Origin: a virus
Taxonomy: Duplodnaviria > Heunggongvirae > Uroviricota > Caudoviricetes
IMG/VR virus record: IMGVR_UViG_3300031134_000639
Strand: one strand, 5' to 3'
DNA: 64,000 nt
Shown here: one piece after another, positions 34,753 to 36,969 of the stretch
How the letters are laid out: the number at the start of each line of letters is the position of its first letter
Numbering within the stretch: the stretch's first letter is position 1
Made by a program: the position numbers and the translations under genes
Notes under the pieces: generated by a model
Databases searched by the model: none
What the model saw: only the letters and a program-made list of their open reading frames with translations
Told to the model about the DNA's origin: nothing

Positions 34753-34805
34753 CTATCCGATATAGTTGCTAAACCAGAAGCCATTATCAGCTGGGCAAGC
34801 TCGTG

Positions 34806-34834
34806 TTGACACAATAGAACACGTATGCTATTAT
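34806..34834 (+). promoter_or_regulatory. Promoter TTGACA-17-TGcTATTAT for the ARH gene
   Basis: Lies inside the 5' extension of ORF 34766..35902, which argues for the downstream TTG start. Confidence 0.6.
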
Positions 34835-34870
34835 TGTGATATTAGGTTTTATTATGAAAGTAGGCACAAT

Positions 34871-35902
34871 TTGAGTGAAAAAGATTTAGCTGCTAAGCAG
34901 CGCGGAACCATCCTTGGTCTTGCCTACGGTGACGCCTGGGGATGGATTACTGAGTTCGCTAACTACAAGGAAACTCAGCGCGTTCGACCTGCCTTCCCAG
35001 CTGAAGCTATCGTCACTGACGACACTCAAATGTCCCTCTACGCGATGAACGCCATCCTTAATGATGTGTACCTGCGTAGCTCCAAGATTAAAGCTTTCGA
35101 CGCTGACCGCAGCGAAGCAAATGGTAACGCTGTGCGAATTGAGTTCGCTGAAGCGTTTATCAACTGGTACTACGACGAGGACAACACTCGCGCTCCTGGA
35201 GTGACCTGCATGGAGGCTCTGAAGAAGATTACGCTTCTTGACCTTGAGACTGGCCTTGAGGGAACCAACGAGTGGTCTAAGGGCTGCGGTGCTAACATGC
35301 GTAACCCATGGTTCGGCCTGCTTCCCTACGATGTTGACATGATTGCTGAGTTGAGCGTTATTCAGTCTTCAGTCACCCACAATAACCCTCTGGCTCTTTC
35401 TTCCTCAGCTATCACAGCGTTGGTCGTTCGCGGCCTTGTCAGCGGTGAGGTTACTCCCGGAGACAACAACGTTATGAACTACGCTATTGATATGACTGAG
35501 TACCTGATTCAGAATCCTTTTGATACACTCAACCTTGGTTACATGGATGGTCTGCTTCAGCTTAAAGAGTTCCTTATCGTCCAGAGGGATCTGACTCACG
35601 TACTTGATGACCTCGATGAGTCAACTGATATCTGTCACCTGTTCGGTGAAGGCAAGATTGCTGAGGAAGCACTCGCCCTCGCTATTGTTGCTGTTGACCG
35701 CTACCAGGATGATGTTATGAGCGGATACCGTCGTCTGGTTCACTCCTCAGGAGACACTGACAGTATCGCAGCTATCGCAGGTTCCTTCTTTGGCGCAGCG
35801 TACGGAGATAGTGTGTTCCCCACCGAATGGTTTGACCGTCTAGAGCCTCGCTACCAGAAAGAGCTATCCCTCGTTATCGGGGATGTGCAGGACCTGATCT
35901 AG
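34871..35902 (+). CDS. ADP-ribosylglycohydrolase (ARH/DraG family)
   Basis: ORF 34766..35902. Motifs LGLAYGDAWG, TDDTQMS, SSGDTDSIAAIAGSFFGAAYG. A TTGACA-17-TGcTATTAT promoter lies inside the long ORF, so the in-frame TTG at 34871 after AAGTAGG is preferred. The 34766 start is not excluded. Confidence 0.8.
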   Translation: MSEKDLAAKQRGTILGLAYGDAWGWITEFANYKETQRVRPAFPAEAIVTDDTQMSLYAMNAILNDVYLRSSKIKAFDADRSEANGNAVRIEFAEAFINWYYDEDNTRAPGVTCMEALKKITLLDLETGLEGTNEWSKGCGANMRNPWFGLLPYDVDMIAELSVIQSSVTHNNPLALSSSAITALVVRGLVSGEVTPGDNNVMNYAIDMTEYLIQNPFDTLNLGYMDGLLQLKEFLIVQRDLTHVLDDLDESTDICHLFGEGKIAEEALALAIVAVDRYQDDVMSGYRRLVHSSGDTDSIAAIAGSFFGAAYGDSVFPTEWFDRLEPRYQKELSLVIGDVQDLI

Positions 35903-35910
35903 TAGATACG

Positions 35911-35958
35911 TGCAAGTAGGGAGGCCACAACAGTAGTGTTGTGGCCTCCCTACTTGCA
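35911..35958 (+). terminator. Intrinsic terminator hairpin (21-bp stem)
   Basis: TGCAAGTAGGGAGGCCACAAC / GTTGTGGCCTCCCTACTTGCA between the ARH gene and ART-1. Confidence 0.8.
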
Positions 35959-35963
35959 TAAAA

Positions 35964-35974
35964 CCGATAGTAAT
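35964..35974 (+). promoter_or_regulatory. CCGATAGTAAT motif (exact), 29 nt before the ART-1 start
   Basis: Exact 11-mer, directly after a terminator hairpin. Confidence 0.6.
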
Positions 35975-36003
35975 TTACTGTAAGTAAAAGTTAGGGTTCC
36001 TTA

Positions 36004-36969
36004 ATGTGTCGTACTAAGAAGTCGGGTGGGCGTAGATGCCCTCAACACACGGATCCTGTAAAACATGCCGCATATAATGCTCGTAGGCGAGAACTGTACG
36101 CCGAAAAGAAAGACTCTACAAAAGTTGAGTCTGAAGAATCAATAGTTATAGTAGACCATGATGATTCCGTAGACTATGGCTTCCTCCCATTAGACAAACC
36201 TCGTAAACCGTATAAGTTCTCCTCCAAGCTCGGTAAAACCTTTGCCAAAGATGCTAATGAGTTTGCTAAAGCAATTCAACCTGACTTTGATGTCGAACGT
36301 TGGAGACTCAGAAACATCTACCACGAAAACATTGCAACAGATGACCCAATCTACAATGAAGGTAGATTCGCTTTCCTTGAGTACACAGCGTCCAATTACG
36401 CTCTCATTGGTGTACGTTTGAACGGTAGAAACTTGAGTTCAAAAAGACATGACAATTTCAAGTTGACTAAAGACCAAGAAAATGAGCTTGACCGTAAGAT
36501 TGAGACACTTGATGAGCTTTTTACTAGAATAAGGCAGCCTTCGGAACCACGAACGCTGTATCGTGGCATGCAAGTGCCTGACACCGTAGAGCAAGAGAAC
36601 GTTGACAGCTGGCTAGAGAGTAAGTTCCCTGTAGGTGGTATTGTCTCGCAGAAGAATTATATGTCAACAAGTTTGAACCCTAAGATAGCAGCAGGTTTTT
36701 CCTACAGTGACCATAGTGACCCAAGAAAAGTAGCTCGTGCAGTCATTTTTGAGATAAGAACAACTGAGGGTGCTCCTCTGGGCCATGGAACATCCTCCTA
36801 CAAAGATATTGAAGCGGAAGTCCTCCTTCCACGCGACTTAAAACTGAAAGTTGTCAAACGAGAGACAAGAGCCTCACACACCATTGGATCTTTTTTGAAC
36901 CGAAAAAACCAAGTCAGCATCTCTACAGTAATTCAGTTAGTTGACGTAACAAATGAAGGAAAAATTTAA
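36004..36969 (+). CDS. ADP-ribosyltransferase paralog ART-1 (R-S-ExE) with Cys-knuckle/Arg-rich leader
   Basis: ORF track. MCRTKKSGGRRCPQHTDPVKHAAYNARRRELYA; LYRGMQV; NYMSTSLNP; IEAEVLLPR. Confidence 0.8.
   Translation: MCRTKKSGGRRCPQHTDPVKHAAYNARRRELYAEKKDSTKVESEESIVIVDHDDSVDYGFLPLDKPRKPYKFSSKLGKTFAKDANEFAKAIQPDFDVERWRLRNIYHENIATDDPIYNEGRFAFLEYTASNYALIGVRLNGRNLSSKRHDNFKLTKDQENELDRKIETLDELFTRIRQPSEPRTLYRGMQVPDTVEQENVDSWLESKFPVGGIVSQKNYMSTSLNPKIAAGFSYSDHSDPRKVARAVIFEIRTTEGAPLGHGTSSYKDIEAEVLLPRDLKLKVVKRETRASHTIGSFLNRKNQVSISTVIQLVDVTNEGKI

Follow-up and report, generated by a model that had tools for sequence, protein, structure and literature searches.

The 64,000-nucleotide stretch of DNA analysed here (the window; IMG/VR record IMGVR_UViG_3300031134_000639, a virus of the Caudoviricetes) carries a gene for an ADP-ribosylglycohydrolase (ARH) at the head of a tandem array of genes for ADP-ribosyltransferases (ARTs), so that one potential eraser of ADP-ribosylation stands beside many potential writers. 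Such a pairing had been proposed in a reading made from the sequence alone, and the ARH and the ARTs are probably a working pair, given that their layout is repeated in related huge phages. The features that carry this argument are listed below, where "tagged" refers to a shared N-terminal sequence described further on, aa stands for amino acids, and ART2 to ART10 are recognized by the ART alignment and an ART hidden Markov model (HMM).

34806-34834, plus strand: sigma-70-type promoter of the ARH gene, TTGACA-17-TG-c-TATTAT, 11/12 match with TG extension
34871-35902, plus strand: ARH, 343 aa, TTG start (PF03747, phrog_22100, AlphaFold2 model, Foldseek)
35911-35958, plus strand: stem-loop between ARH and ART1, perfect arms at 35911-35932 and 35937-35958, no U tract
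35964-35974, plus strand: phage-specific promoter-like motif CCGATAGTAAT before ART1, with five exact copies in the window
36004-36969, plus strand: ART1, 321 aa, tagged, R-S-ExE (PF03496 E=1.6e-11; Alt-like PHROG 802)
36969-37856, plus strand: ART2, 295 aa, missing in sister strains L102 and L103
37856-38731, plus strand: ART3, 291 aa
38765-38775, plus strand: CCGATAGATAT, a variant of CCGATAGTAAT before ART4 (motif match)
38808-39698, plus strand: ART4, 296 aa when counted from the ATG at the start of its MCR tag
39740-39750, plus strand: exact copy of CCGATAGTAAT before ART5
39780-40634, plus strand: ART5, 284 aa
40634-41584, plus strand: ART6, 316 aa
41584-42450, plus strand: ART7, 288 aa
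42450-43283, plus strand: ART8, 277 aa
43286-44203, plus strand: ART9, 305 aa
44203-45135, plus strand: ART10, 310 aa
45154-45164, plus strand: exact copy of CCGATAGTAAT before ART11
45191-46054, plus strand: ART11, 287 aa (PF03496 E=4.4e-19)
48324-49181, plus strand: ART12, 285 aa, tagged, just past RadA (PF03496 E=9.1e-13), preceded by GATAGACA + 6 nt + ATG
18778-19686, minus strand: 13th ART, 302 aa, without the MCR tag and outside the array (PF03496 E=9.7e-11)

The listed open reading frame (ORF) from 34766 to 35902 on the plus strand holds GLAYGDAWG, TDDTQMS and SSGDTDSIAAIAGSFFGAAYG, motifs from which the sequence-only reading had recognized an enzyme of the ARH/DraG family. A profile search agrees: Pfam ADP_ribosyl_GH (PF03747) is matched with E=2.7e-43 over profile positions 1-286 of 287, with a score of 149 bits against a curated cut-off of 26.2 that the protein passes as a family member. 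The best PHROG is phrog_22100 (E=4e-47), which bears no function label, followed by the annotated ADP-ribosylglycohydrolase PHROG. The stop codon originally proposed (TAG, 35900-35902) stands, but the start at 34766 does not. Translation almost certainly begins at the TTG at 34871, giving 343 aa, because a 98%-identical homologue (P0001) has 343 aa, because the M1 column is invariant in an alignment of 46 homologues (33-98% identity), and because the 378-aa reading from 34766 would contain the proposed promoter. Automatic gene calls on sister contigs are split between 343 and 378 aa.

In the same alignment E28, D50, D51, T52, H170, G294, D295, D297 and S298 are invariant, while T169-H170 and G294-D295-x-D297-S298 are invariant or nearly so. 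The motifs of the binuclear metal site (E28, T49-D50-D51-T52 and G294-D295-T296-D297-S298) are all present, with only T49 and T296 varying, and they align with the catalytic motifs of human ARH1 and DraG. Loss of the metal-binding Asp/Thr residues had been named beforehand as a finding that would speak against the assignment; since E28, D50, D51, T52, D295, D297 and S298 do not vary, that objection falls away. The AlphaFold2 model (predicted local distance difference test 95.3) is all-helical, as expected of the ARH fold, and its Foldseek neighbours are MJ1187, ARH3, ARH1 and DraG (probability 1.0, template-modelling score 0.62-0.76). Moreover, the coding regions of four near-identical strains differ at 52 synonymous and 10 non-synonymous positions, and the gene is therefore under purifying selection. 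By its motifs and fold, the ARH is predicted to be an intact, full-length and catalytically competent enzyme.

With regard to the bond that it might attack, the profile of ARH homologues matches human ARH1 in a single end-to-end stretch (E=2.5e-25) and Rhodospirillum rubrum DraG in two stretches (E=1.2e-25), followed by ARH3 (~3e-20) and Tri1 (E=2e-17). Foldseek places ARH3 and ARH1 alike, whereas the profile E-values favour DraG/ARH1 (1-3e-25) over ARH3 (3e-20). A close-up view of the alignment with human ARH1 pairs NxRAPG with DGRAPG, SKGCGANMR with GGCGAAMR and GDTDS with GDSDS, and at the level of residues A108 with Ala98, D295 with Asp302 and E28 with Glu25. In the human enzyme Ala98 (in RAPG) and Asp302 contact the distal ribose, and Glu25 is the absolutely conserved catalytic glutamate (PMC6309922). 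These ARH1-like motifs, together with the chemistry of the neighbouring ARTs, point to arginine as the probable linkage.

The promoter that had been noticed ahead of the gene withstands closer scrutiny. Its 11/12 match with a TG extension is the top sigma-70 match across 33-50 kb, and at least 11/12 is reached by no more than four sites, itself included, over all 64 kb, three of them with the TG extension, whereas about 0.05 such sites would be expected by chance according to our own estimate. A leader of ~30 nt with the Shine-Dalgarno-like AAAGTAGG precedes the TTG. Of the terminator that had been described with a 21-bp stem, the hairpin is indeed present, but its fold has a 23-bp stem and a 4-nt loop (35910-35959; folding free energy, dG, -46.1 kcal/mol; z = -11.8) and no U tract follows it; it is therefore not a canonical intrinsic terminator, goes unlisted by a terminator consensus scan, and is likely either a transcript end or an insulator. 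The promoter shows no substitution among the four sister strains, a weak indication of constraint, and the same is true of the hairpin, for which only ~2 substitutions would be expected if it evolved neutrally. Having its own promoter and hairpin, the ARH gene is therefore predicted to be insulated from the ARTs. Towards the two upstream genes there is no such hairpin, and read-through from these into ARH is therefore possible.

On the other side of the hairpin, CCGATAGTAAT starts six bases past its end, and the ATG of ART1 at 36004 lies 101 nt past the ARH stop codon, in agreement with the claim that the first writer begins about 100 nt later under a different promoter motif. This 11-mer occurs in five exact copies in the window (25898, 35964, 39740, 45154 and 61747) versus 0.02 expected, all on the plus strand and just upstream of genes, namely those of the CCA-adding enzyme, ART1, ART5 and ART11 and the ORF at 61756; variants are located at 29044, 33717, 34757, 38765 and 46858, and ART4, RadA, an NlpC/P60 gene and a gene for a 76-aa protein are preceded by variants. 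From the promoter types we infer the temporal classes of the ARH and the ARTs. A -10-like box is also found 6-7 nt before the ATG of several genes (33998-34011, 48307-48326, 9983-10021 and, on the minus strand, 12432-12395), in the form TAGACA + 6 nt + ATG ahead of the 247-aa gene upstream of ARH and of ART12, and TATAAT + 6-7 nt + ATG after strong sigma-70 sites at 9983 and 12432 (minus strand), which suggests leaderless mRNAs. No Rfam family was found in the window.

As for the writers, the array stands beside ARH as the sequence-only reading had it, but the window holds 13 of them rather than 12: 11 are contiguous (36004-46054), one follows RadA and one lies on the minus strand. ART1 to ART12 match ADPrib_exo_Tox, the 12 tagged ARTs being 34-40% identical to ART1, and in all 12 the catalytic residues R187, S221 (in STS) and E270-x-E272 are invariant. 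Such R-S-ExE motifs are typical of arginine-specific enzymes, and on this basis the writers apparently are active. In this line, the closest solved structures to the ART profile are those of the arginine-specific toxins SpvB, Vis, Vip2 and HopU1, Tre1 being matched as well (E=0.004-0.005), and the best PHROG is the Alt-like family. The 13th ART is matched by the ART HMM (E=1.4e-20) in its catalytic part only and begins with STCYTGPTCKKHG. The copy number of the ARTs is not fixed, as ART2 is missing from L102 and L103 (window 36953-37917); the breakpoints of this deletion or duplication fall where ART2 and ART3 encode the tag, in ~77 conserved nt at their 5' ends, and unequal recombination between these repeats is therefore what changes it.

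The tag itself is a stretch of ~35 residues, MCRxxxxGGRRCPxH(T/S)(D/N)P..ARNARRRxxY, with which all 12 ARTs of the array and the post-RadA position open, whereas the ARH has none according to the tag HMM. A profile search with the tag found 187 representative proteins among 1.84 billion (E up to 0.001), and it begins at residue 1 in 147 of the 150 matches listed. The 87 newly found carriers include 65 ADPrib_exo_Tox ARTs and one Zeta-toxin-like kinase, and the tag is also present on ART-PolyVal (PF18760) proteins, on the CCA-adding enzyme of the window phage (25939-26049) and of its relatives, and weakly on the 247-aa protein (34009-34050). A single N-terminal module on different effector-type domains resembles, at the sequence level, a trafficking signal; it may serve for delivery or packaging, and by analogy with T4 Alt one could imagine packaging into the virion. 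A C-C-H zinc knuckle is not supported as an interpretation, because three ARTs have Tyr in place of the His and no more than two Cys are invariant.

The surroundings of these genes contain the following elements.

33662-33710, plus strand: 20-bp perfect hairpin (inverted repeat I3; dG -36.4 kcal/mol, z -7.0)
33761-33991, plus strand: 76-aa ORF, two genes upstream of ARH, no Pfam or PHROG match
34009-34752, plus strand: 247-aa charged protein directly upstream of ARH, ORF with a tag-like start
46083-46138, plus strand: hairpin with 27-nt arms closing the ART array, then TTCTTTC (dG -41, z -10.6)
46896-48311, plus strand: RadA/Sms-like ATPase, conserved downstream anchor (Pfam)

Large hairpins thus bracket two units, one comprising the 76-aa gene, the 247-aa gene and ARH, and the other ART1 to ART11; the upstream edge of the former is the hairpin at 33662-33710, directly followed by CCGATTACAT at 33717. 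The first ~14 residues of the 247-aa protein, MCRNRPGPRCTDHS, resemble the start of the ART tag (tag HMM E=1.4e-14), and the protein has no match in Pfam, PHROG, PADLOC or PDB. That it might be a degenerate ART was considered and rejected, since hhalign pairs only 18 columns with the ART profile and no PDB or Pfam match exists. Genes of 244-252 aa hold the equivalent position in L001, L005 and L007, genes of 76-77 aa that of the 76-aa ORF in L005, L007, L008 and L102-L105, and RadA keeps its position after ARH or the ARTs in L001, L005, L007 and L102-L105. The conserved block accordingly reads CCA-adding enzyme, SPFH/flotillin, 5'-nucleotidase (NT5C), 76-aa gene, ~247-aa gene, ARH, variable ARTs and RadA. 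The RadA-like gene is enlarged in two relatives, to 830 aa in L005 (12330-14822) and 720 aa in L007 (13038-15200), and faint Hom_end and weak LAGLIDADG homing-endonuclease matches in the L005 protein suggest an intein.

Gene-family expansion is a general habit of the window genome. A tandem family of 10 paralogues of ~200-225 aa occupies 310-13157 on the minus strand, a three-member family of ~290 aa lies at 57991-60667 on the plus strand, and pairs are found at 51716-53640 and 4102-5180, both on the minus strand; the members of these families that were tested have no Pfam match.

Comparison with related loci, designated L001 and so on, bears directly on the pairing. The relatives with the closest ARHs are as follows.

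L104: ARH identity at strain level, 11+1 ARTs
L102/L103: ARH identity at strain level, 10+1 ARTs
L007: ARH identity 55%, 3+1 ARTs
L005: ARH identity 50%, 1 ART
L001: ARH identity 44%, 0 ARTs
L108: ARH identity 42%, at least 8 ARTs, tagged, without the conserved block
L009 (344-kb contig): ARH identity 38%, three tagged ARTs directly upstream of ARH, without the conserved block

Besides these, L008 is a 98%-identical copy of the window ARH. An extended -10 or full sigma-70-type promoter stands before ARH in every relative examined (L001, L003, L005, L007 and L108), and where ARTs lie downstream, ARH is followed by a hairpin (L005) or by a U-tract terminator (L108). The upstream motifs of the ARTs are particular to each lineage; the ARTs of L005 and L007 are preceded by CCGATAGAYA, a sequence related to CCGATAGTAAT, and then by 6 nt and the ATG, which again looks leaderless. 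In L108 the order is a TTGACA-17-TATACT promoter, ARH, the U-tract terminator and then the ARTs. The layout of host-type promoter, ARH, hairpin and ARTs therefore recurs at ARH identities of 55, 50 and 42%, and adjacency as such reaches down to 38%, so that the description of a separately regulated eraser beside many writers holds both for the anatomy of the window and by comparison, although the pairing is not obligatory, as L001, L003/L004 and L091 demonstrate. Two further features of L108 (68.7-kb contig) are a near-identical 40-nt element, GGGACGACGATAnA..GTCGTTATTAATAAnnTATG, with a short inverted repeat inside, before 6 of the 7 ARTs examined (11070-20990), and a homologue of Arr-type rifampin ARTs 8 kb upstream of ARH.

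Among 80 IMG/VR loci with more distant ARHs, an ART lies within the flanks at 16, and at 14 of these it is on the same strand and ends 350-1320 nt upstream of ARH. It is typically the C-terminus of a protein of 1,100-1,700 aa, in phages with a high guanine-cytosine content (high-GC phages). At L030 (3820-11146), and similarly at L024, L027, L032, L041, L083 and L084, phages of ~55-60 kb with high GC encode a 1,400-1,700-aa protein with a C-terminal ART; after this giant protein come two small genes (one with a weak, sub-cut-off helix-turn-helix match) and, ~1 kb downstream, ARH. Loci of the L030 type are a second, independent ART-ARH architecture. A search with the ARTs gave 4 weak loci in JGI metagenome contigs and 6 in IMG/VR, too few to ask about ARTs without ARH. 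Within INPHARED, megablast with the ARH region and the surrounding 24.5 kb gave no match, nor did tblastn with ART1, and the lineage is therefore absent from deposited phages. For L102 and L104, which hold near-identical copies of the locus, the contigs are 511,644 and 624,949 bp long, and contigs of up to 885,359 bp appear in clusters of the same ART family; provided that each of these contigs is the genome of one phage and no assembly error, they rank with the largest phage genomes known.

We consider with moderate confidence, at the level of an even chance, that the ARH is an enzyme for erasing arginine ADP-ribosylation that the phage itself brings about, comparable to DraG or to the catalytic half of Tri1. 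It would be a metal-dependent hydrolase of ARH1/DraG type whose likeliest substrate is ADP-ribosyl-arginine on proteins, and would serve as the single, linkage-specific eraser for the marks made by the 12-13 R-S-ExE ARTs of the phage. Host RNA polymerase would transcribe ARH alone from the sigma-70 promoter, possibly also by read-through from the two upstream genes, and the very stable hairpin would insulate it from the ARTs, which in turn would be driven by the phage motif CCGATAGTAAT, shared with the tagged CCA-adding enzyme and with a gene for a lysin-like NlpC/P60 protein. The tag probably gives the ARTs a destination that the ARH does not share; one example would be the virion, from which they would be injected as T4 Alt is. 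Because an ARH attacks a chemical bond and not any particular transferase, one ARH could cover writers that diversify fast, and in the cell in which the phage replicates it would curb or undo what they do, as self-protection, as a timed reset or as both. In this scheme we infer the specificity for arginine, the timing of expression, the reversal of marks made by the ARTs of the phage and what the tag stands for.

Several observations weigh against it. The NCBIfam equivalog scores of the ARH are far under the cut-offs, with 59.2 versus 337 bits needed for DraG (TIGR02662) and 38.6 versus 490 bits needed for Tri1 (NF041672), and it is therefore an orthologue of neither. Asp97 of DraG pairs with A108 (pairwise alignment) or with the N105/T106 region (profile alignment), leaving no unambiguous Asp counterpart, and sequence scores cannot separate arginine from serine or other linkages. 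In L001, L003/L004 and L091 no ART is found within 10 kb of the ARH, which adjoins RadA or lies close to it and in L003 and L091 is accompanied by NERD, L001, L003 and L091 having been checked over ~21 kb per contig; these three relatives show that, at the ARH locus, the pairing is common without being obligatory. The actinophage ARHs Phrappuccino gp191 and prophiFSIL01-1 gp84 likewise have no annotated ART nearby. As the gene is kept without adjacent ARTs, it can have a function for which neighbouring ARTs are not required. Moreover, if eraser and writers were active together in one cytoplasm, they would consume NAD in a futile cycle unless time or space kept them apart, a separation that the scheme assumes, and the gap between ARH and RadA may be a simple permissive insertion site in a genome full of paralogue arrays. 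The Mycobacteroides prophage ARHs were also considered as immunity proteins of ART polymorphic toxins, an idea dropped for these phages because the annotated prophiFSIL01-1 cassette is a Tde-like DNase with Tdi and its ARH is not beside an ART.

One alternative is counter-defence. The ARH, made at once by host RNA polymerase, would strip ADP-ribose attached by host ARTs from phage or host macromolecules, and its nearness to the phage ARTs would reflect a shared NAD/ADP-ribose conflict island. The host-type promoter kept on ARH in all relatives examined fits early expression, and the persistence of ARH without adjacent ARTs in L001, L003, L091 and the known actinophages is what such a role would allow. 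However, PADLOC finds no defence match for the ARH, the ARTs or their neighbours, and there is no known host target. To our knowledge, DarT-type systems are the main ADP-ribosylating defences. A precedent for an orphan phage eraser exists in the NADAR protein AdfN, which opposes DarT1 (PMC11825919), and macromolecular conjugates of ADP-ribose are the targets that Iyer et al. propose for phage ARG domains (PMC9503650), but DarT, the best-known defence of this kind, acts on DNA and is reversed by macro and NADAR domains, not by ARH-fold enzymes (PMC9503650, PMC11825919). Furthermore, the same-strand adjacency at the head of the array, with one ARH per array, is kept down to 42% identity, and at 38% in reversed order; this recurrence is more than a conflict-island effect predicts, and we regard counter-defence as unlikely.

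Less probable still is an independent core gene, in which the ARH would have a function of its own, such as resetting the host's endogenous arginine ADP-ribosylation, with the ART array expanding beside it by chance at an insertion-tolerant site. The ART-free loci with ARH next to or near RadA (L001, L003/L004 and L091, with NERD in L003 and L091) are in keeping with this, as are the shifts of ART copy number by simple unequal recombination in the tag-coding repeats, the several other paralogue arrays of the window, and the location of ART12 and the 13th ART away from ARH. On the other hand, L108 and L009 join ARH to an ART array without the RadA context, and the giant proteins of high-GC phages that end in an ART are an independent case, with an ARH ~1 kb downstream. 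A linkage found in three architectures is therefore not expected of chance adjacency. Finally, it is improbable that the ARH acts on soluble ADP-ribose derivatives (O-acetyl-ADP-ribose, immune signals or by-products of NAD turnover) and not on proteins, since, although ARH3 hydrolyses O-acetyl-ADP-ribose (cited in PMC9503650), ARH3 structures are among its top structural neighbours, NT5C is nearby and L009 has a nicotinate phosphoribosyltransferase gene 2.5 kb downstream, its profile similarity to ARH1/DraG exceeds that to ARH3, the protein carries the ARH1-type RAPG, the window ORFs scanned include no sirtuin, TIR, macro, NADAR or Nudix gene, and, according to Iyer et al., macromolecular conjugates are what viral ARG domains favour (PMC9503650).

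The preferred reading, that of an eraser of the phage's own marks, can be extended to a phage polymorphic-toxin arsenal, a possibility that we hold tentatively and with considerable doubt. The diversifying tagged ARTs would be the weapons, the tag a signal for virion packaging and injection, and the untagged ARH under its host promoter a universal immunity or reset factor, whose recognition of the bond would let unequal recombination add writers freely. Should the pairing be functional, it would show a way for phages to go on enlarging a family of toxic effectors safely. In that case 12 ARTs and one ARH would also be a compact, clonable system to map the host proteins hit on arginine during takeover and the removal of the marks, while the tag common to the ARTs might uncover a new signal for protein delivery.

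Among the systems already described, one of the closest is Tre1/Tri1 of Serratia proteamaculans (PDB 6DRE), a type VI effector-immunity pair in which an R-S-E arginine ART lies beside a DraG-like ARH that reverses its mark and protects the producer (PMC8120803). Both halves match the phage proteins, Tri1 the ARH profile and Tre1 the ART profile, and the phage ARH likewise lies beside an R-S-E ART. However, Tri1 has an N-terminal extension that physically blocks Tre1 (PMC8120803), its DraG-like domain starting at about residue 69, whereas the first conserved motif of the phage ARH is at residue 12, with just 11 residues before it and no occluding extension; its mode would therefore be enzymatic only. 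The phage moreover has one eraser to 12-13 writers, in what are predicted to be separate transcription units. DraT/DraG, the nitrogenase switch of Rhodospirillum and Azospirillum, is likewise a pair of neighbouring genes for reversible arginine mono-ADP-ribosylation; DraG, one of the top profile matches, shares with the phage ARH the E-D-D and GD(A/S)D(T/S) motifs of the metal site, although the phage region at Asp97 is ARH1-like (NxRAPG). In that case one writer and one eraser act in one operon on a single target, in contrast to the 12-13 writers per eraser of the phage, and the two-gene operon pattern of DraT/DraG or of toxin-antitoxin pairs is apparently not followed, as ARH has its own promoter and a hairpin of -46 kcal/mol precedes ART1. 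Human ARH1 (PDB 3HFW, 6G28) is the only relative of solved structure whose alignment runs unbroken from end to end, with RAPG, GCGAxMR, GDSDS (Asp302, Ser305) and the catalytic Glu25 in common (PMC6309922), but it is ~20% identical, a eukaryotic housekeeping enzyme, and has no linked writer gene.

With respect to phages, T4 Alt is an R-S-E ART that modifies host proteins on arginine and is made late, packaged and injected (PMC9503650). The window ARTs match the Alt-like PHROG; for these only the shared tag hints at packaging. T4 has three ARTs and no array, no ARH-family eraser is described for it in the survey (PMC9503650), and its known eraser is the NADAR protein AdfN, which acts on DNA (PMC11825919). 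ARG domains are rare in viruses, being found in ~5% of jumbo phages (PMC9503650), but ART-ARG toxin-antitoxin pairs have been reported in Aeromonas phages, as have jumbo phages with at least 10 ARTs, such as Bacillus phage G (Iyer, Burroughs, Aravind 2022; PMC9503650). These 1:1 pairs and scattered multi-ART genomes are two separate observations, whereas in the window the tandem, tagged and diversified ARTs stand behind one ARH that has a host-type promoter to itself. Known reversible pairs (DraT/DraG, Tre1/Tri1) have one writer and one eraser, and phage ARTs such as T4 Alt and Mod have been described without an ARH-type eraser; here one eraser heads up to 12 diversified writers, in a layout that recurs in distinct lineages of very large phages. 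What seems to be new is thus one self-promoted ARH heading tandem, tagged and diversified ARTs, in an arrangement kept across lineages while the number of writers shifts between strains.

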